From a virus (lineage: Duplodnaviria; Heunggongvirae; Uroviricota; Caudoviricetes): a stretch of 34,565 bases of DNA. The stretch lies in IMG/VR virus record IMGVR_UViG_2537562189_000007; one strand, written 5' to 3'. A program made the translations under genes and the position numbers. This document shows positions 15,195-30,354 of the stretch, one piece after another. The notes below the pieces were generated by a model. The model had not been told where the DNA came from. It searched no databases and saw nothing but the letters and a program-made list of their open reading frames with translations. Every line of letters begins with the position of its first letter. Position 1 is the first letter of the stretch.

Positions 15195-17171
15195 TCATGC
15201 CGCGGCATCCGCGTTGTTCACTTCCACCTTCACACTGTCAATCAGCAACGTATATGTCGCCGCCTTTGATATGTCTGTCAGTTGCAGTTTGTCCGCCGCC
15301 CCTGATGCCGGAGATTTCACCAGTGTGAACGGTGTACCCCGTTTCTCATCCAGTACCGGCGTCACCTGAATGCTGTTGTTTCCGGCAAACTCAAAAGCCA
15401 GTGTGTGCCATCCGTTATCAAAGACCCCGAACGTATCCAGCTTCGCATTCTGCTTCTTGTGGTACATCGCGTTCAGGTTCGTCGCATCCGTCTGCAGGAA
15501 GAAGGACATCAGCATGTCGTTGCCTTCCTCTGACAGCGTCACTCCCTCCGGCAGGGACGACAACTGCCAGTAAATACCCAGGGCAAACTGATTCGGCACC
15601 AGTGCGCCCGGCACCTTAAACCGCACGCTCACACGTCCACCTTTCTTCAGCAACTCTGCTCCCTGCCCGGCGGCATCATGCTCCAGAAACCAGATGTGGC
15701 TTTCCGGTTTGTTCAGTTGCAGGGCCTTACCACCGGTGGCACCCTCATCACTGACCACAGCCTCAGCGATGTTTTTATTAACACTGTCTCCGCTCGCCGG
15801 TTTGTGATAATAGCGCCAGCCCTGTGATGCCAGGTCTTCACCGGACGCCAGCAGACTCATCAGGGTTCGGTTACTGACCGGGGCTTCCGGCTCTCTCTCC
15901 GGGCCTTCACCGGAAGGTCCGGTGGGCTTCACCGTATCAGGCTGTTTTCCGGTAATGAATTCAGCGGTTCTCCCGGCATGCACCAGAATCGCCGTTGCCA
16001 GACGGTCGGAAATAATCCCACGGCGAGCCCATGAACTGAAATGGCTGGCCCTGTCCACAGATGTCCAGGTCTTCTGGTCATTACGCCACTTTGAACCGTA
16101 ATAACCGACGGCTTCCAGGTCCGGGTCTTCTGCCGGGTTATTGGTCTGCACATTCGCACCATTCTCATCCGTCATTAACGGTACAAAGAAAATGTTCTGC
16201 GACTCCTTCCCCTTATACCCTCCGTATACTGATGCATACCCTTCCGCATGACGCTGCTTCCAGAAATACGTTGTGTCCCCGCAAATCCACGGTACCGCTG
16301 ATGCGCTGCCTCCTGTGCTCTGTGATGCCTGACCGGCAAGCTCCGTTCTGAACTGATTCACCATCGCACTAAACAGCCCCGGATGCTGCGCATGCGTCCC
16401 CACTGCCGCATCACCTTCTCCCTGCATCCACACCACCGCAAGCAGACGGTTTTTCGGGTTCTTCGCCAGTGCGGCTTTAGTCCGGCTCACCAAATCCTGA
16501 TACAGCGGCTTACCCACACCCCAGCGCAGTGAATTTTCCGATGCACCGGCTGATTCGCTGTATGTGCCGTCTGCACCCGTTGTGAATGCCGAAGCACCAC
16601 GGCAGCACGGAACCAGCAGAATGCCCGCATTCGCCGGTATAAACGGCAGCAGTTTTTTGGCGATATGCAGCCCCTGCCCCACGGTTCCGTACTGCCCCTT
16701 TGACAGGTCCGCTTTCGGATGGTTAAGACGGCTCATGTCCTGCACATCATGCAGACAATGGTCCGCCGGAATAATGTCGTTATACTTACAGGCGGCACCG
16801 CCCGGTGTCACCGTACTGCGGCGCGCCAGCTGCTTAATACGCGGGTCCGGACGGTCATATGTCTCCGGCAGCGGAAGGCCTTCACCATACGACATGCCGT
16901 TTGACTGCCCTGCCAGAACCACAACAAAGTAATACTCCGGGTCGCTGGTGGCGCTGATTACTGTGCCTTCTCCATCCGACGGCTTCACCACCACAGGTGT
17001 GCTCACATCACCTTCTGCGACAATCGCCTGAATAAGTGCTGCGCCATCATCCGTATACGAAGAAAACGGCCCGCCGTATGGCTGCCATCCTTCACGAATT
17101 TTTTGAGCAAGTGTATCAGCAAGGTCTGACGGCGACGCCGCCCTGACCACGTCATAGTGTTTAAATGCCAT
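15195..17171 (-). CDS. nanS: Prophage sialate O-acetylesterase (NanS-p-like)
   Basis: 658 aa; N-terminal DUF1737-like segment, SASA esterase core with GQSN motif (VVVLAGQSNGMSYGEG), C-terminal carbohydrate-binding-like region; GGGAGG RBS; location between tRNAs and holin as in EHEC lambdoid prophages. Confidence 0.8.
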   Translation of the reverse strand: MAFKHYDVVRAASPSDLADTLAQKIREGWQPYGGPFSSYTDDGAALIQAIVAEGDVSTPVVVKPSDGEGTVISATSDPEYYFVVVLAGQSNGMSYGEGLPLPETYDRPDPRIKQLARRSTVTPGGAACKYNDIIPADHCLHDVQDMSRLNHPKADLSKGQYGTVGQGLHIAKKLLPFIPANAGILLVPCCRGASAFTTGADGTYSESAGASENSLRWGVGKPLYQDLVSRTKAALAKNPKNRLLAVVWMQGEGDAAVGTHAQHPGLFSAMVNQFRTELAGQASQSTGGSASAVPWICGDTTYFWKQRHAEGYASVYGGYKGKESQNIFFVPLMTDENGANVQTNNPAEDPDLEAVGYYGSKWRNDQKTWTSVDRASHFSSWARRGIISDRLATAILVHAGRTAEFITGKQPDTVKPTGPSGEGPEREPEAPVSNRTLMSLLASGEDLASQGWRYYHKPASGDSVNKNIAEAVVSDEGATGGKALQLNKPESHIWFLEHDAAGQGAELLKKGGRVSVRFKVPGALVPNQFALGIYWQLSSLPEGVTLSEEGNDMLMSFFLQTDATNLNAMYHKKQNAKLDTFGVFDNGWHTLAFEFAGNNSIQVTPVLDEKRGTPFTLVKSPASGAADKLQLTDISKAATYTLLIDSVKVEVNNADAAA

Positions 17172-17397: not shown

Positions 17398-17427
17398 GCA
17401 TGTAAAAAGGCTCCTGCGATGAGGAGC
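17397..17427 (-). terminator. Intrinsic terminator (minus strand)
   Basis: Minus strand AGGCTCCTcatcgcAGGAGCCT (8-bp stem) followed by TTTTT; back-to-back with the plus-strand terminator. Confidence 0.5.
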
Positions 17428-17456
17428 CTGGATATATGCCTAATCTCTGTATACAG

Positions 17457-17650
17457 CATGATGCCGGGTGCCTCCCGGTGAATTCTGCAATGACCAGACA
17501 GAATCCGCAACTTGCCTATACAATACGCAACCAAACATCTGTCATTATGCCCCTCCGCTCAGGGGGATTCATCATGCAGGATTTTTTTAACAAATGCTCA
17601 GCCAGACAGGCAACCGTCAACTGACTGAATTGTGAGTGATTTAACATTTC
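17457..17650. repeat. Tandem direct repeat, copy 1 (period ~269 bp)
   Basis: Shares with copy 2 the blocks catg(a/g)tgccgggtgcctcccggtga, atgcccctccgc(t/a)cagggggattca(t/c)catgc and ttttaacaaat(g/a)ctcag...gacaggcaac(c/t)gtcaactgactgaattgtgag; the middle ~70 bp is diverged. Confidence 0.6.
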
Positions 17651-17674
17651 ACTGCCCGGTGCCTTCCCCTCATT

Positions 17675-17697
17675 AAAAAGCCCCTCCGGAGAGGGGC
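17675..17697 (-). terminator. Intrinsic terminator between the two repeat copies
   Basis: Palindrome GCCCCTCcggaGAGGGGC preceded on the plus strand by AAAAA, so the minus strand has hairpin plus TTTTT. Confidence 0.55.
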
Positions 17698-17725
17698 TAA
17701 AGCCGCGTATCTGTATCATCATGCG

Positions 17726-17916
17726 CATGGTGCCGGGTGCCTCCCGGTGAGTTCAGTATCAGCACCTGAACCCGCACCAGATAAGGGATATAACCAACCA
17801 CCTGTCGCTGATATGCCCCTCCGCACAGGGGGATTCACCATGCCAGTTTCTTTTAACAAATACTCAGTCTGACAGGCAACTGTCAACTGACTGAATTGTG
17901 AGACATTTAAAATTTT
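17726..17916. repeat. Tandem direct repeat, copy 2
   Basis: See copy 1; begins 269 bp after it with the same conserved blocks. Confidence 0.6.
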
Positions 17917-18005: not shown

Positions 18006-18082
18006 TGGCGCGTTGTACTGGATTCGAACCAGTGACCGATTGCTTAGAAGGCAATTGCTCTGTCCGGCTGAGCTAACAACGC
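18006..18082 (-). tRNA. argO: tRNA-Arg (anticodon UCU)
   Basis: Minus strand folds as a 77-nt cloverleaf GCGTTGT/ACAACGC acceptor, anticodon loop CUUCUAA, T-loop GGTTCGAATCC, encoded CCA. Confidence 0.8.
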
Positions 18083-18095
18083 TGAATACCGATAA

Positions 18096-18172
18096 TGGAC
18101 CGCCATCGAGGACTCGAACCCCGCGCAACCAGCTTCGAAGGCTGACGCTCTATCCCGATGAGCTAATGGCGG
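18096..18172 (-). tRNA. argN: tRNA-Arg (anticodon UCG)
   Basis: 77-nt cloverleaf with acceptor CCGCCAT/ATGGCGG, anticodon loop CUUCGAA, T-loop GGTTCGAGTCC, encoded CCA. Gene symbol by synteny with the ileZ-argN-argO cluster. Confidence 0.7.
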
Positions 18173-18181
18173 TATGTGATA

Positions 18182-18257
18182 TGGTGGCCCTTGCTGGATT
18201 TGAACCAGCGACCTGGCGATTATGAGTCGCTCGCTCTCACCACTGAGCTAAAGGGCC
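18182..18257 (-). tRNA. ileZ: tRNA with CAU anticodon, ileX-like (tRNA-Ile2; Met not excluded)
   Basis: 76-nt cloverleaf GGCCCTT...AAGGGCC-A-CCA, anticodon loop CUCAUAA; overall close to E. coli ileX as recalled. Confidence 0.65.
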
Positions 18258-22186: not shown

Positions 22187-22519
22187 TTACCTCCAGATAC
22201 GCTGCTGGAATGTGCGGGACGGACGCGGTGGGCGTTCGGAATAAGGGAGCCTGACGGAGATTATCCAGTGACGACGATCGAAGCTGAGATCTTTCTGAAA
22301 CTCGTAACCACGTCTGCGGTAGCACTGGATCAGCCATTCGGCCTGTTCTTCAGTGCATGGGTCATGCTGGAACCAGTCAGATTTGAATGCATGAGAACGC
22401 CGCCCGTGCCTGCTGGCAGGGGCGGCGGAGTTATCCGAATTGTGTAATTTGGTATCTTGCGCCATCGGTTGTCTCTGCTGGCGCAGCAGGTGCCAGTTGT
22501 TCAGGCTGGCGTGCGGCAA
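22187..22519 (-). CDS. Hypothetical nin-region protein
   Basis: 110-aa ORF abutting the DUF968 gene; no confident motif. Confidence 0.35.
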   Translation of the reverse strand: MPHASLNNWHLLRQQRQPMAQDTKLHNSDNSAAPASRHGRRSHAFKSDWFQHDPCTEEQAEWLIQCYRRRGYEFQKDLSFDRRHWIISVRLPYSERPPRPSRTFQQRIWR

Positions 22520-22537: not shown

Positions 22538-22565
22538 TTGTCGTCAACAGGCAGCGTGCTATCAT
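22538..22565 (+). promoter_or_regulatory. Candidate sigma70 promoter for the parDE moron
   Basis: TTGTCG - 16 nt - TATCAT about 35 nt upstream of the ParD ATG. Confidence 0.3.
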
Positions 22566-22600
22566 CGAATAGTGTTCTATCCTACTCCGTGAGGTTTACC

Positions 22601-22858
22601 ATGCGTACAACCCAACAATTCAGCATTACATTAACTAACGAGATGGCTGACATGGTGCGCGCCCGTGTGGCTTCCGGTGCCTATGCTTCAGAAAGCGAGG
22701 TCATTCGTGAAGGGCTTCGCGCACTGAATGAGCGCGATAAAGCAATCGAAGCGTGGTTAACGCATTCAGCCGCCCCCTCTCTTGATTCTATCCGCGAAAA
22801 CCCAAACAACGGACGCTCCATTTCACAGGTTCGCGCCGCGATTCGATCCGGGAAGTAA
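22601..22858 (+). CDS. parD: ParD-family antitoxin (RHH)
   Basis: 85 aa from ATG 22601 (GAGG 6 nt upstream); FSITLTNEMADMVRARVASGAYASESEVIREGLRAL matches the ParD/COG3609 pattern. Confidence 0.75.
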   Translation: MRTTQQFSITLTNEMADMVRARVASGAYASESEVIREGLRALNERDKAIEAWLTHSAAPSLDSIRENPNNGRSISQVRAAIRSGK

Positions 22859-22863
22859 TCTGC

Positions 22864-23163
22864 ATGACATATGAAGTCATCATTACTCCTGAGGCCGAAC
22901 AACAAATAATCAACCTGCACAGATATATAACGGAGAAAGCAGGGAACATCATTGCTGACAATTATGCCAATGCGCTTCTTGATTATCTTGATGGGTTTTC
23001 TACATTCCCGCATCGGGGCAATAAACGCGATGATATTCGCCAGGGGATGCGGGTAACTCATTTCCGCCACAGAACGATTATTGCTTTTGCCGTTGATGGC
23101 AGAAAAGTCTTTATTGTCGGTATCTATCATGGTGGGCAAAGTTATGAAACCGATTTCTTATAA
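22864..23163 (+). CDS. parE: ParE/RelE-family toxin
   Basis: 99 aa, starts 5 nt after ParD stop; ParE-like sequence (VIITPEAEQQIINLHRYI...FIVGIYHGGQ). Confidence 0.75.
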   Translation: MTYEVIITPEAEQQIINLHRYITEKAGNIIADNYANALLDYLDGFSTFPHRGNKRDDIRQGMRVTHFRHRTIIAFAVDGRKVFIVGIYHGGQSYETDFL

Positions 23164-23244
23164 ACTTTTACCCACATCATTCCGGTGTTAGAATAAACCG
23201 TCTGCCCCTCTCTTACTGCGGATTCGTAGGCTATATAAATCAAA

Positions 23245-23278
23245 GATCCCGGCTCATGTTTGTGGCGGGATCTTTTTT
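23245..23278 (+). terminator. Intrinsic terminator after parE
   Basis: GATCCCG - 14-nt loop - CGGGATC followed by TTTTTT. Confidence 0.55.
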
Positions 23279-23285
23279 CGGCGAT

Positions 23286-23369
23286 TTATCCCCAGCGGCA
23301 AATCGAATACACCACCAGCGCCACCGCCATTGCAATACCAACATTTGAGAAGGCCTCAGGCCAGCTCAT
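23286..23369 (-). CDS. Small hydrophobic peptide (27 aa)
   Basis: ATG overlaps the DUF551 stop (caATGAgc) with AAGGAGG 7 nt upstream; MSWPEAFSNVGIAMAVALVVYSICRWG. Confidence 0.25.
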   Translation of the reverse strand: MSWPEAFSNVGIAMAVALVVYSICRWG

Positions 23370-23719
23370 TGGCGCACCTCCTTCGGCGGTTCTGGTAGCG
23401 GCATCCAGTGTGTGGCTTCACACACGATAGGCGCACCGAAACACTGCGCATACTGGAAGTCACCCGTATTATCCAGGTTAAAACCTGTAAACTGTTCACC
23501 CGTGCTGGACACAAACAGTAGTACATCAACACCAACTGGCGGCATTCGCTCACTACAGCTTATCCAACCATCCGGAGTTACCGGAGAATTGCCAGCCTTG
23601 CGCATGGCAATCTCCATGATTTCAACCATATCCCTTGGTGGAATTTTACAATGCTGACCAGTATGCTTCTGCTGCCTGGCATATTCGAGGATGTGCTCCA
23701 GCTTGATACGATTAATCAT
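23366..23719 (-). CDS. DUF551-family phage protein
   Basis: 117 aa ending ...CEATHWMPLPEPP, the characteristic DUF551 C-terminal pattern. Confidence 0.55.
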   Translation of the reverse strand: MINRIKLEHILEYARQQKHTGQHCKIPPRDMVEIMEIAMRKAGNSPVTPDGWISCSERMPPVGVDVLLFVSSTGEQFTGFNLDNTGDFQYAQCFGAPIVCEATHWMPLPEPPKEVRQ

Positions 23720-24069
23720 GATTTATCTCCCTGAAGCATGGCTTCGCGGCAGTCGTTCCAGCCTTCAGCATAATCACTATATGCAAGAGGCCAACCGTTT
23801 CTGTATTCACGCGGCAACTTACTAGGCACTGGCGGGGCGGCGTAAAGCTGGTGCGTTCCATCAGGCAGCGAGTGACCAACATACTCACCGAACCCGTCAA
23901 CACACATGCCCCCATCTTCAATAATACATGAAGCTACAGGCTTCGCTTCCAGCGATGCCAGCGCGATAAGCGCCAGCTCACGAATTTCACCGCCGTCTAT
24001 ATCGTCAATGTCATCGCGGCCAGAAATGTTAGCCAGCCATTGCAGTCGCTCTTTGGTAATAGTGGTCAT
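23716..24069 (-). CDS. Hypothetical phage protein
   Basis: 117-aa ORF translationally coupled to neighbours. Confidence 0.45.
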   Translation of the reverse strand: MTTITKERLQWLANISGRDDIDDIDGGEIRELALIALASLEAKPVASCIIEDGGMCVDGFGEYVGHSLPDGTHQLYAAPPVPSKLPREYRNGWPLAYSDYAEGWNDCREAMLQGDKS

Positions 24070-24070
24070 C

Positions 24071-24415
24071 TCACTCTCCTTCTATGCGAATACCAGCAGC
24101 AGTCAGTGCGGCATTGACCTCATCAGCGTAGTAGTACGTTAATCCACTTGATGATTTAGCCAGCTTGAATGGTTCTGGTAACTTCACTATGCGGGACTCC
24201 TGCTCGTCGATACGCTGTTTTGCTTCCTCCAGTTCATCCAGCAAATCAGCGATAATATCCACTTCACGATGACGGATTTCACGCTTAAACGCAGCCAAAG
24301 CTGCATCACAATCCTGCTCAGCGTTTGGACTGTCTGGTTTCTCCTGATACCACGCCAGCATCGACTGATAGTTTTGTGCCGCCTCACGCAGCGCCTGATA
24401 ATTAATCCCACTCAC
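24071..24415 (-). CDS. Hypothetical coiled-coil protein
   Basis: GTG at 24415 preceded by AGGAGG; ORF track start 24442 would overlap the DUF4406 gene. Confidence 0.4.
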   Translation of the reverse strand: MSGINYQALREAAQNYQSMLAWYQEKPDSPNAEQDCDAALAAFKREIRHREVDIIADLLDELEEAKQRIDEQESRIVKLPEPFKLAKSSSGLTYYYADEVNAALTAAGIRIEGE

Positions 24416-24707
24416 TGGTTGCCTCCTGGAAAATAACTGCATGCCCCAGTTTCTCCGCCAGTGCCAGTTCTGCCTTAGCGCCTGCCGACCGCTGCCAGCC
24501 TTTCAGCATATAAACCGCATCCACACAACGAATCATTGCCATGCAAATATCCATGTAATGTGGCTGAGTCAGCCCGTCCGGAAGTACTGACGGGTTTAAA
24601 ACGGTATGCCCTTCCCGTTTCAGTGCTTCTTCCGCCTTGTGAAATGCCTCGCGGTTGAAATTTTCATATCCCGTCATTGGACCGGCGATATAAATTCTCA
24701 CCCTCAC
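24402..24707 (-). CDS. DUF4406 / nucleoside 2-deoxyribosyltransferase-like protein
   Basis: 101 aa, VRIYIAGPMTGYENFNREAF... pattern; GTG start preceded by AGGAGGG. Confidence 0.55.
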   Translation of the reverse strand: MRVRIYIAGPMTGYENFNREAFHKAEEALKREGHTVLNPSVLPDGLTQPHYMDICMAMIRCVDAVYMLKGWQRSAGAKAELALAEKLGHAVIFQEATSEWD

Positions 24708-24958
24708 GCCTGAACCCTCCTGTCGAAATAAACGTAGTTATTCACTATGCGCAGCGGCATGCCTAATTTTCTGGCAATTTCCCTTCTTTGCATGCCTCTC
24801 TGATGCAGTTGCCGCGCCTGCTCAATATCACGCTGAGAATATTTTGCTGACTGGTGAAAATCACCACGTAACATCATGCTGATGCCCAACTCCCGTGCCT
24901 TCGTTCTCACTGCCGCTTCAGTTCGTCCGATAAGTGCGCCAATGCTTTTTACCTTCAT
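24704..24958 (-). CDS. Small HTH DNA-binding protein
   Basis: Internal ATG 24958 (MKVKSIGALIGRTEAAVRTKARELG...RREIARKLGMPLRIVNNYV), two HTH-like segments. Confidence 0.4.
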   Translation of the reverse strand: MKVKSIGALIGRTEAAVRTKARELGISMMLRGDFHQSAKYSQRDIEQARQLHQRGMQRREIARKLGMPLRIVNNYVYFDRRVQA

Positions 24959-25017
24959 TGTTCCCGCGCACTGCCGGAGTATCAGAATTTCAGCCCGGCA
25001 CCACGTCTTCCACCCAC

Positions 25018-25734
25018 TCACCGCTGCTGTTCTCTGGTGGCGGTAATATCCCGGAGAATATCCCGGCACTTGTTCAGCTCCCGCAGCGCGGCGCAGACTC
25101 GCTCCCACTTCTGAACCTGACCTTTTGCCCGGCGCAGCTCGCGGTTAGCCACATGCAGCGATGGTAGAATCAGGTCATCTGCTTTCGTTTCGGTGACCGA
25201 TGGCTGTAACTTCACAATGTCTTCCACGATTTCTGTTTTCATTTCTTCCTGTGTCGTCGTTTCCTGGACTGGTAACGCAACACCTGCTGGCTGAGGAAAG
25301 GCTTTACCATCGGTTTCCGCTACGGATGCAGCTTCCGGCTCTGCCGGTAAATCAGCGCCCGGTATGCAGTAACGAAATTTACCGCCCTGATTTACGCGAA
25401 TCAGACGCCCTTTGCTGATTGCCATGGCCAGCGATGAATTCGCCCGGCGGGAGGTAATCCCGAACATAAGTGCCAGCTCATCCGCCGTTTGTGGGCCATG
25501 TTGTTCAATCGCCTCAGTCAGCATTTGCGCTGTCACTTTCGGTACCGGTGACACTGGTTCACTTTCACCTGCCTGAGTCAGCCACCACATCGACCCCTTG
25601 TTATCCGCTTCACCACGGCGCTTCAGTTTCCACAGTTCGTTGACCGCATCTTCACGGCTGATTCCAAGGCGGGCCGCCACTACCTGTGAAGAGGCTCTTT
25701 TCAGTGCTTTCAGTGCGTCAAATACGGTTTCCAT
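25018..25734 (-). CDS. Hypothetical phage protein with N-terminal winged-helix-like region
   Basis: ATG 25734 preceded by GGAGGAAA ([31 protein letters not shown]...); C-terminal coiled coil. Confidence 0.45.
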
Positions 25735-25767
25735 TAAAATTTCCTCCGACAAAATCGTTTCCCAGAT

Positions 25768-26430
25768 TCAAATAAAACCAGCAGCCTTCCGGCGTTCGTA
25801 TTCCTGTTTCAGCCGTTCAATTGGCGTTGGCCCTTGCGGGTGTTTCGCCCCTTCCAGTTGTCGTCGCACTGGCGGAACACTCATCCCGTTACCAACATGC
25901 TTTGCCCATTTCGTCAGTTGCCGTTCCGCAAGTCGTTTTAACTCACCCTGCGTCATCTGGCGCTCAATCCCTCTGGTACGCATTTCGAGGCAGATGTGGT
26001 ACAGCACAGGCTGTGGCCACGGGTATTTATCACTCCCGTCGTATCGCCAGGATTCATTGCGCCAGCGCCGGTACTCTTCCATCACGGCATCCACCGTAAG
26101 ACCAAATGGATTTGCCCCACTCTCCGAAATCAGTGCAACAAACTCAGCCAGGTCCGGGGGCCACGTTTCACCCGCCCGGCAGCGGTCCATGCACTGACGG
26201 CAGACCAGACGGATTTGCTGTTCAGTCATCGCACCAATCTGGGCAATCCAGAGCTTCGAAGGTGCGGCCCCGTTCTTCTGAGTCCAGCGGTTCGAATACA
26301 CCTCCCCCATAAGCTCCCACAGCTTCCAGGCCGTTTCCGTTGCTGATAAATCCGTTGTCACGTTCCCACTGTTCGCGTGCTGCCCGGATTTCCTGAACTG
26401 CCCGTGATGCCGTGCCACCTGATGCTGCAT
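25768..26430 (-). CDS. Replication protein P-like (helicase loader)
   Basis: 220-aa ORF downstream of the O-like gene with lambda P-like segments (YPWPQPVLYHICLEMRTRGIERQMTQGELKRLAERQ); start uncertain because the first ~70 codons overlap the O-like gene. Confidence 0.55.
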   Translation of the reverse strand: MQHQVARHHGQFRKSGQHANSGNVTTDLSATETAWKLWELMGEVYSNRWTQKNGAAPSKLWIAQIGAMTEQQIRLVCRQCMDRCRAGETWPPDLAEFVALISESGANPFGLTVDAVMEEYRRWRNESWRYDGSDKYPWPQPVLYHICLEMRTRGIERQMTQGELKRLAERQLTKWAKHVGNGMSVPPVRRQLEGAKHPQGPTPIERLKQEYERRKAAGFI

Positions 26431-29865: not shown

Positions 29866-30354
29866 TTAGCACCAGTAAAAACAGGTTGCCACTGGTTAAT
29901 TTACCCTGAAAAGTCAGGGCATAACACGAAAGCGCACGGCGAAGTTCGTATATCTGTACGGCGTCGTTAAATTTTCTTCGACCGTGCACTTCCGGTTGTG
30001 GCAATCCGCGAAATGGCGCGGCGGTAAGTATGGCTGGGGTTTCCTCCATTGCTCCAGAAAATGCACCGGGTTGTCAGGTTGACCATACGCTTAAGTGACA
30101 GCCCCGCCACAATACCCATGTGTAGTCTTTGGTGGCATCAGTTCTACTCCGTGACTGCTCTGCCACCCTTTTTAAAGTGAATTTTGTGATGCGGTGAATG
30201 CGGCTAAGCGCACGCGGAACAGTTAAAACCGTAAAGTGGTCTTTTACTGGCGTAACAGACATCAACTAACAATCCGGCGTTAATTGTTAACTGGTTAACG
30301 TCACCTGGAGGCACCAGGCACCACATCACAAAATTCATTGTTGAGGACGCGATA

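Follow-up and report, generated by a model that had tools for sequence, protein, structure and literature searches.

We analyzed a block of seven short genes in a 34,565-nucleotide (nt) stretch of DNA, IMG/VR virus record IMGVR_UViG_2537562189_000007, which we refer to as the window. The window is an Escherichia coli lambdoid prophage that resembles Shiga toxin (Stx) phages. The open reading frame (ORF) listing, together with a reading of the strand from 23100 to 25900, revealed that seven consecutive minus-strand genes exactly fill positions 23286 to 25734, flanked by the replication gene P on one side and by a convergent parDE pair on the other. An initial annotation of this DNA had described seven small minus-strand genes of 27 to 238 amino acids (aa) here, and their coordinates, strand, and lengths were all borne out. 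With families called from Pfam and PHROG scans of the block proteins, the genes are as follows, in the order in which they are read:

25018-25734, minus strand: g1, 238 aa, ATG start, GGAGG Shine-Dalgarno (SD) sequence, DUF1627
24704-25021, minus strand: g2, 105 aa, GTG start, two helix-turn-helix (HTH)-like segments
24402-24707, minus strand: g3, 101 aa, GTG start, DUF4406
24071-24415, minus strand: g4, 114 aa, GTG start, Ead/Ea22 N-terminal coil
23716-24069, minus strand: g5, 117 aa, ATG start, modular protein without a family
23366-23719, minus strand: g6, 117 aa, ATG start, DUF551
23286-23369, minus strand: g7 (ORF27), 27 aa, ATG start, hydrophobic peptide with a predicted single helix

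The genes had also been described as chained by overlaps. Junctions computed directly from the sequence agree with this and run in the following order:

P/g1: 33-nt gap, GGAGG upstream of the g1 start
g1/g2: GTGA overlap
g2/g3: GTGA overlap, GGAGGG upstream
g3/g4: 14-nt overlap, AGGAGG upstream
g4/g5: TGAgATG, a 1-nt gap, AAGGAG upstream
g5/g6: ATGA overlap
g6/g7: ATGA overlap, AAGGAGGT upstream, 6 nt to the ATG

The last of these is the strong ribosome-binding site that had been noted for the hydrophobic 27-aa ORF. Database homologues number 2304 for g1, 627 for g5, and 5093 for g6, and 11956 cluster representatives match g3; these numbers indicate that the block genes are real and not chance ORFs. 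The family scans did not assign all of the ORFs to characterized housekeeping functions, and an NCBIfam search of the block proteins gave no match. Sequence searches of the PDB returned nothing useful for g1, g3, g5, and g6, and the matches to g2 were tetratricopeptide repeat noise. Within the block, an Rfam scan found no RNA family and a scan for promoters and terminators gave nothing above chance expectation. No convincing hairpin or tR2-like terminator was found after P, and a repeat search yielded nothing notable besides a terminator at 23242 to 23275, described below.

The gene order around the block runs from YdaS/YdaT-type regulators through an O-like initiator, P, the block, the convergent parD/parE pair, DUF968, and RusA to Q. 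Past Q lie a methylase, three tRNAs, two STnc100 copies, and a NanS-p-type esterase. Compared with the lambda map, the block occupies the position of the nin region, between P and DUF968/RusA/Q. Several chromosomes of Stx-producing E. coli (STEC) contain segments 97% identical to it, and in these the six larger genes are likewise annotated by RefSeq.

How stable is this set of genes? We surveyed 5426 complete E. coli genomes with a 2.6-kb block query. Pieces of the block turned up in 3829 of them, the median genome having two such places; at least 80% of the block in one place was seen in only 13 genomes, and no phage record in the searched collection covers 80% of it. Alignment of 116 viral contigs on g7 revealed that the genes upstream of it occur in many combinations drawn from one pool, namely, DUF1627, the HTH gene, DUF4406, the Ea22 coil, g5, DUF551, a gene of the 933W p77 type, and a family with a KLPDKAMDYLKRNGLISVEDVLR tail. 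The region had been called a hypervariable region of nin/ead type. This description holds for the nin position, the ea-type modules (Ead/Ea22 and DUF551), and the strong mosaicism, but not for g1 and g2, which are stable (g1 lies beside the helicase loader gene in 54 of 60 loci). These data indicate a layered block in which g1 and g2 are stable with the replication module and only g3 to g6 are shuffled ea-type cargo. The micro-gene g7, for a conserved and predicted membrane peptide, would form a further layer; it is usually the last gene of such modules, with a toxin-antitoxin insert or int directly after it.

A C-terminal module of ∼45 aa, ELTMLVKQL..KLPDKAMDYLKRNGLISVEDVLR, is common to many otherwise unrelated proteins that precede the micro-ORF (the loci include L008, L018, L039, L045, L081, and L112). 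L081 and L106 carry it joined to the N-terminal half of a g2-type HTH protein. Its distribution marks it as another portable end-module, like DUF551.

The stable layer begins with g1, which matches Pfam DUF1627 (PF07789) at 272.3 bits against a cutoff of 28.1, over profile positions 1 to 155 of 155. Sub-threshold winged-helix matches cover residues 2 to 48 and 64 to 125 (AbiEi_4, TrmB, HTH_11, and MarR-type and Ren-like PHROGs), and g1 probably consists of two winged-helix-like segments followed by an acidic, coiled C-terminal part. Among its 2304 homologues, the 120 listed are all at least 82% identical. In the 54 of 60 informative loci where DUF1627 directly follows a helicase-loader gene, the loader is of the P type in 22 and of the DnaC type in 32. 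The gene after DUF1627 is one of two alternatives, a g2-type HTH gene (26 loci) or DUF977 (39 loci), to which g2 shows no similarity. Because of the adjacency to the loader and the two-option partner downstream, we conclude that g1 and g2 travel with the replication module and are not part of the hypervariable cargo. They may serve as a stable, probably DNA-binding companion pair of that module, at the position of lambda ren. The Rac prophage gene ydaW belongs to the same family, DUF1627, of which g1 is a full-length member, and both genes follow replication genes. The K-12 ydaW is presumably a truncated pseudogene, unlike g1, which is intact and coupled to an HTH gene.

Two HTH-type proteins had been proposed in the block. 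In keeping with this, g2 matches phrog_323, annotated as a transcriptional regulator, at E = 9e-25, but curated HTH models remain sub-threshold for g1 and g2 alike; in g2, HTH_7 scored 22.9 bits against a cutoff of 23.8, with HTH_23, Sigma70_r4_2, and HTH_3 falling on the same residues, 60 to 98. The start of g2 differs between annotations. In relatives, the Prokaryotic Genome Annotation Pipeline (PGAP) of RefSeq calls a protein of 93 aa (L001 7435-7716), from a codon that is CTG here. An internal ATG (24958) would give 84 aa; this codon is ATA or AGG in some of 22 related loci. Across the same 22 loci, protein conservation extends upstream of the 24958 ATG (W..W.RAEI[LM]ILRQCAGTM), with synonymous changes, and the GTGA overlap with the g1 stop is retained even in diverged loci. 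Given the loss of the ATG in relatives, the conserved protein upstream of it, and the survival of GTGA, the probable start of g2 is 25021, the GTG of the GTGA overlap, which yields 105 aa. The 93-aa RefSeq call is probably a systematic start-site mis-call.

Two cargo genes belong to families that had been named in the initial annotation, and both score above their Pfam cutoffs: g3 matches DUF4406 (PF14359) at 125.7 bits (cutoff 22; profile positions 2 to 91 of 91), and g6 matches DUF551 (PF04448) at 58.8 bits (cutoff 22; profile positions 1 to 68 of 68). An AlphaFold2 model of g3, built on an alignment of 62 diverse DUF4406 proteins drawn from the 11956 cluster representatives, reached a predicted local distance difference test score (pLDDT) of 93.6. 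The top 30 Foldseek matches of this model in the PDB were almost all nucleoside 2'-deoxyribosyltransferases (NDT), human DNPH1, or MilB/BcmB, with template modeling (TM) scores of 0.71 to 0.77 on the query and only ∼0.5 on the targets; the modeled fold agrees with the earlier description of this protein as deoxyribosyltransferase-like.

In profile alignment, YIAGP of DUF4406 falls on YIAGP of Trypanosoma brucei NDT, and S-x-G-A-x2-E80 falls on D-C-G-T-A-F-E of the same enzyme and on S-P-G-T-H-I-E of BcmB; the family profile matches T. brucei NDT at E = 0.001. Glu80 of g3 is conserved in at least 90% of DUF4406 sequences, and the glutamate aligned with it is the catalytic nucleophile in NDT/MilB-type enzymes. 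With the NDT/DNPH1 (Rcl)/MilB-BcmB superfamily, g3 shares a Rossmann-like fold, an N-terminal YIAGP-type motif, and a glutamate that aligns with this nucleophile. Unlike those enzymes, it has 101 aa instead of 130 to 160, and it carries Ser where the NDT-type enzymes have Asp preceding the G-x-x-x-E motif. Against PF05014, g3 scored 15.1 bits, below the cutoff of 28.8, and it is therefore not filed as an NDT. The model indicates a minimal NDT/DNPH1/MilB-like fold with Glu80 as the candidate nucleophile. Such an N-glycosidase-type fold would probably act on a nucleoside or nucleotide, for which N-glycosidase or transferase chemistry is plausible. In fused DUF4406 proteins, the extra parts hold no Pfam domain.

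The next gene, g4, matches Pfam Ead_Ea22 (PF13935) at 33 bits (cutoff 27) over profile positions 1 to 87 of 139, which is the N-terminal coil only. The protein ends in a short, unrelated C terminus, and PGAP calls the same 345-nt gene in relatives. The product may be an Ea22-type oligomerizing coil. Protein g5 matches phrog_5117 (E = 2e-27) and has no match in Pfam, NCBIfam, or the PDB; its 627 homologues are all "hypothetical" and all from Enterobacteriaceae. In the alignment, g5 breaks down into short pieces, each of which recombines on its own: a variable N-terminal helix, IALASLEA-PVA, SCIIEDGGMCVDGFGEYVGHSLPDGTHQLY, an APP..VP linker, and YAEGWN-CR-AML. In some phages, a g5-type N-terminal part is fused to DUF551 (e.g., P0044 and P0082) or to DUF550, and these fusions suggest that g5 and g6 work together. 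Protein g5 might then be an adaptor-like module and probably a physical partner of g6. In g6, a conserved N-terminal helical part (residues 1 to 60) is followed by a hypervariable core (∼61 to 100) and a conserved THWMPLPEPP tail. We tentatively assign DUF551 a small-barrel fold from modeling. This small beta-domain with its hypervariable core would probably be a binding module. DUF551 is a portable domain that also occurs in one Ea22 variant, in YfdS, and in a MazZ-type pyrophosphohydrolase (PMC10834534).

Which known phage region does the block resemble? In its P-Q map position, its tightly packed small genes, and its overlapping stops and starts, it is like the nin region of lambda (ren, ninA-ninI), whose nin genes are dispensable, and g1 occupies the position equivalent to ren. 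In gene content, no block protein is detectably homologous to ren or to any nin gene: the Pfam and PHROG scans found no Nin family, g1 has a weak match to the "Ren-like" phrog_142 (E = 3.6e-5), and BLASTP of g1 against lambda Ren gave no similarity. The content is ea type, in contrast to the nin type of lambda, and the block lacks a tR2-like terminator after P.

The exo-xis or "ea" region of lambda, P22, and Stx phages (Ea22, Ead, EaA; PMC10834534) shares with the block the Ead_Ea22 coil, here in g4, and the shuffling of modules; the DUF551 of g6 is also found in the V2 variant of Ea22 (PMC10834534). In 933W and PhiR12_4, the ea region is closed by the same 27-codon ORF as the block. The block differs in that its modules lie in the rightward (replication-side) operon, whereas the exo-xis ea region is leftward, and in that they are separate coupled cistrons, whereas an Ea22-type protein holds them fused in a single chain. 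A pro-lysogenic phenotype is reported for Ea22. By homology, the block belongs to the ea-type module pool and not to the nin gene set.

The last gene, g7, encodes a peptide of the pattern M[ST]WPEAF..VGIAMAVALVVYSICRWG, which has no Pfam or PHROG family match. We retrieved copies by tblastn against phages and with two degenerate DNA patterns, one for the C-terminal codons and one for the SD plus the first seven codons. With tblastn, 96 phage records proved to carry g7, among them 933W, VT2-Sakai, Min27, and numerous Stx phages. By blastn, part of a 191-nt query around g7 (23230-23420) matched 1989 of the 5426 E. coli genomes, many of these matches being delimited exactly by the ORF (query positions 56/57 to 140). 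The C-terminal pattern gave 126 loci, of which 116 yield a 27-aa ORF with a CRWG/CRWR end, and in all 116 the start overlaps the stop of the upstream gene as ATGA. The commonest 16-mers upstream of g7 copies contain GGAGG or a near variant. With the N-terminal/SD pattern, 122 of 136 matches were exactly 27 codons long and ∼10 of the rest were unrelated genomic chance matches; nearly all of the 27-codon ORFs retrieved without the C terminus end in YSIC[RS]W[GW].

In codons not used for retrieval, variability was 0.128 at third positions, compared to 0.053 and 0.042 at first and second positions. In the diverged copy at locus L005, all four changes in the VVYSICRWG-tail codons are synonymous. 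The genes upstream of g7 fall into at least four unrelated classes, and the first recognizable gene downstream, over the 116 loci, is hok in 72, a convergent parE in 12, int in 8, and DUF968 in 3. Intact copies also occur in phage-plasmids (MSWPEAFATVGIVMAAALGLYSICRWW) and in mid-operon in the virulent Vequintavirus Av-05. Given the fixed 27-codon length, the ATGA geometry, the third-position variability, and the varied neighbors, codon-level evidence indicates that g7 is a genuine, conserved, widespread, and largely unannotated protein-coding micro-gene.

At the species level, the N-terminal pattern was found only in Escherichia and Shigella, plus one 369-nt contig labeled Acinetobacter that is probably contamination. 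A comparison limited, within K-12, to the Qin prophage found g7 absent there. The ORF is uncalled in four phage records and three RefSeq genomes that we inspected, and the peptide is deposited only as a "hypothetical protein" in a few older annotations (e.g., BAI35516.1); its exact-sequence cluster also holds unrelated DUF551 proteins. A full-text literature search for VVYSICRW found nothing, and the name LygF led only to unrelated papers. Folding around the start revealed no significant SD-sequestering structure (z = -1.46).

The best 17-residue window of g7 has a Kyte-Doolittle hydropathy of 1.9 to 2.5, between an acidic N terminus and a basic-aromatic C terminus. The gene probably encodes a peptide that crosses the membrane once and is produced in proportion to the gene before it. 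Hok, DinQ, TisB, MgtS, and AcrZ are similar in size, hydrophobicity, and predicted single membrane helix, a likeness of composition only, and g7 often adjoins hok; it has no sequence similarity to any of the five. Type I toxins have their own repressed mRNA, whereas g7 would be coupled inside a lytic operon, and no antisense RNA or Rfam family was found at its locus. We considered g7 as a type I toxin and rated this low, given the lack of an Rfam family at or near g7 and its ATGA coupling within an operon at all 116 loci.

Two observations adjoin g7. In Av-05 (L127 842-1581), the micro-ORF follows a gene that ends in a g5-type motif, YVDGWNACRAAML, and this carriage implies that such modules move between temperate and virulent coliphages. 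A translated match to the YSICRW tail, LGLFSICRW, lies in the hok/sok leader of two loci (L003 2660-2686 and L004 2647-2673; E = 0.17), on the ORF strand or the one opposite, and is probably due to chance.

Taken together, these results fit best with a block that lies in the nin position of an Stx-phage-like lambdoid prophage and forms an accessory part of its early rightward operon, made up of a stable pair, shuffled cargo, and a micro-gene. In the lysogen, none of the seven genes would be expressed. After induction, they would be cotranscribed from the cro-side promoter through O and P, and on this single early-right transcript translation would be handed from gene to gene by the stop/start overlaps, with SD sequences probably embedded within the preceding gene. 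We put the probability of this account as a whole at roughly 0.7.

Several observations weigh against it. The g1/g2 junction has no good SD, and g1 and g2 reach curated HTH models only below the cutoffs. Of the solved NDT/DNPH1 enzymes, g3 spans only about half, with parts of the active site and of the oligomer interface absent, so that catalysis is not assured. The ratio of nonsynonymous to synonymous polymorphism (pN/pS) in the N-terminal g7 codons not used for retrieval is 0.43, a moderate and not a strong constraint. In Shigella phage POCJ13 (L126 1501-1581), codon 3 of g7 is TAG and not TGG, with the rest recognizable; either this copy has recently become a pseudogene or the TAG reflects a sequencing error.

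The block as a whole is ordinary for such prophages and contributes one modestly new small-protein family, g7. What is new here is the layered architecture, the g2 start, the DUF4406 fold with its candidate catalytic residue, the fusion link between g5 and DUF551, and the constraint on the micro-gene. For a very common STEC prophage segment, the stable and the swappable parts can now be told apart, which is mainly annotation tidying; if g7 is made, few unstudied phage micro-proteins of pathogenic E. coli would be more widespread.

The initial annotation had placed the block where phages keep anti-defense and host-takeover cargo. Could it, or at least g3 to g7, be an island in which each protein counters host immunity or redirects physiology early in lysis? 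Cargo of this kind typically shows the position, small gene size, and extreme mosaicism seen here, along with the early expression expected of these genes. DUF551, in which conserved flanks enclose a hypervariable core, resembles the product of an arms race; molecules derived from nucleotides could be degraded by an NDT/DNPH1-like fold; and DUF551 is found fused to MazZ, a dATP/dGTP pyrophosphohydrolase described as inhibiting host restriction enzymes (PMC10834534). However, no block member fits a defense-system model: in a scan with the PADLOC models, only g1 gave a match, to SWIM_XIII at noise level (E = 0.004, 13.7 bits). The literature on the block families, searched by family name, held no link to anti-defense. 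The published phenotypes are instead pro-lysogenic, with Ea22 favoring lysogeny (PMC10834534), or related to stress and replication: YfdS, a DUF551 protein, and its cluster have oxidative-stress or replication phenotypes (PMC10834534, PMC4776307), and the yfdQRST cluster is linked to inhibition of replication initiation (PMC4776307). Moreover, g1 and g2 behave as conserved companions of the replication module and not as cargo. An anti-defense or host-takeover role has no direct support, and it is not the best-supported reading; we rate the island as unlikely, with perhaps one chance in four left to it.

Within the nin-position account, a more speculative role for g7 deserves mention. The peptide might be the constant membrane partner of a variable adaptor gene (DUF551, a KLPDKAMDYL-type tail, or the 933W p77 type) in a modular two-part system, in which a variable soluble binder is combined with a fixed membrane effector on the host envelope; takeover, exclusion, or counter-defense would all be conceivable. 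We consider this doubtful. If true, it would be common to the ea/nin cargo carried by Stx phages, by phage-plasmids, and even by a virulent Vequintavirus.

A further question is whether g7 is a protein gene at all or a conserved DNA or RNA element, that is, a recombination junction for modules or a sequence linked to the hok promoter. Homology between the window and its closest relatives breaks exactly at the g7 start and stop, and hok follows g7 in 72 of the 116 loci. A promoter-like TTGCGG-16-TAGAAT, which we take for the hok promoter, begins ∼9 nt after the g7 stop in L001 and L003, and RefSeq omits the ORF in the three genomes inspected. Such an element does not account for a length of 27 codons in 122 of ∼126 true matches found without the C terminus, for third positions that are ∼2.5-fold more variable than first and second ones, or for the four purely synonymous tail changes in L005. 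An SD and the ATGA start are always present, and hok-free contexts exist (before parDE, before int, and in mid-operon in a virulent phage). We therefore regard a noncoding g7 as improbable.

It is very improbable that the block is a decaying cryptic-prophage remnant in which larger Ea22/EaA-type genes have broken up into the small ORFs. This would fit with g4 holding just the N-terminal part of the Ead_Ea22 model, with g5 and g6 corresponding to parts that are fused in other phages, and with the frameshifted genes and the one fragmentary gene in this region of the relative at L002. Yet none of the block ORFs is broken, and each has an SD and a coupled start; full-length homologues of the same size number in the hundreds to thousands; and several complete STEC genomes carry the same split organization, annotated at 97% identity. 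Scarcely credible is the idea that g7 is a C-terminal membrane anchor joined to the DUF551 protein by -1 frameshifting at the g6 end: relative to g6, g7 lies in the -1 frame, which continues without a stop for 15 codons or more ahead of the ATG (also in the partial database proteins P0002 and P0004), with a strong SD just upstream, but the last g6 codons contain no slippery X XXY YYZ heptamer, the same ORF stands behind unrelated genes with different 3' ends, no in-frame fused protein is found in the database clusters, and the canonical ATG with an optimally spaced SD is the simpler account of expression.

Beyond the block, the parD/parE pair (22538-23163, plus strand) comes with its own bidirectional terminator:

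23242-23275, both strands: bidirectional hairpin terminator, 15-bp inverted repeat I1

This hairpin folds at -19.7 kcal/mol on the minus strand (z -2.7) and at -22.4 kcal/mol on the plus strand (z -2.6), with a U-tract of UUUGAUUU on the block strand and UUUUUU on the parDE strand. It is a terminator common to the block and parDE and is part of the parDE insert, not a block module. In hok-carrying relatives, homology ends 1 nt past the ORF27 stop. In the slot of parDE, close relatives carry hok/sok, with or without ygiW, or a RelE/HTH pair, and the variety of toxin-antitoxin genes in this one slot makes the position right after ORF27 a hotspot for toxin-antitoxin inserts. Since the PHROG match begins at residue 22, the start of parD probably lies ∼21 codons inside the mechanical TTG ORF. 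Between parDE and DUF968, a 110-aa ORF (22187-22519, minus strand) has no Pfam or PADLOC match; relatives have a hypothetical protein of ∼90 aa there.

On the other side of the block, the mechanical P ORF (25768-26430, minus strand; 220 aa) overlaps the O-like gene by ∼200 nt. RefSeq relatives use a P start equivalent to 26229, which gives 153 aa and an 8-nt overlap with the O stop.

Farther away, two tandem STnc100 copies (17398-17606 and 17668-17872, minus strand; 183 and 146 bits) lie between the three tRNA genes (18009-18257, minus strand) and the NanS-p-type esterase (15195-17171). The place next to the tRNAs, STnc100, and the esterase is presumably where Stx phages carry stx. A 2026 preprint relates STnc100 to the PasD small RNAs (sRNAs) of pathogenic E. 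coli. The Pas sRNAs, for which DUF1627 is named as a neighbor, were considered for the block and set aside, as they are located elsewhere, near the esterase and lysis genes. Finally, a DicF sRNA gene (30117-30168, plus strand; 61 bits) is present as in the K-12 Qin prophage, which confirms a Qin/Rac-like early-left region.

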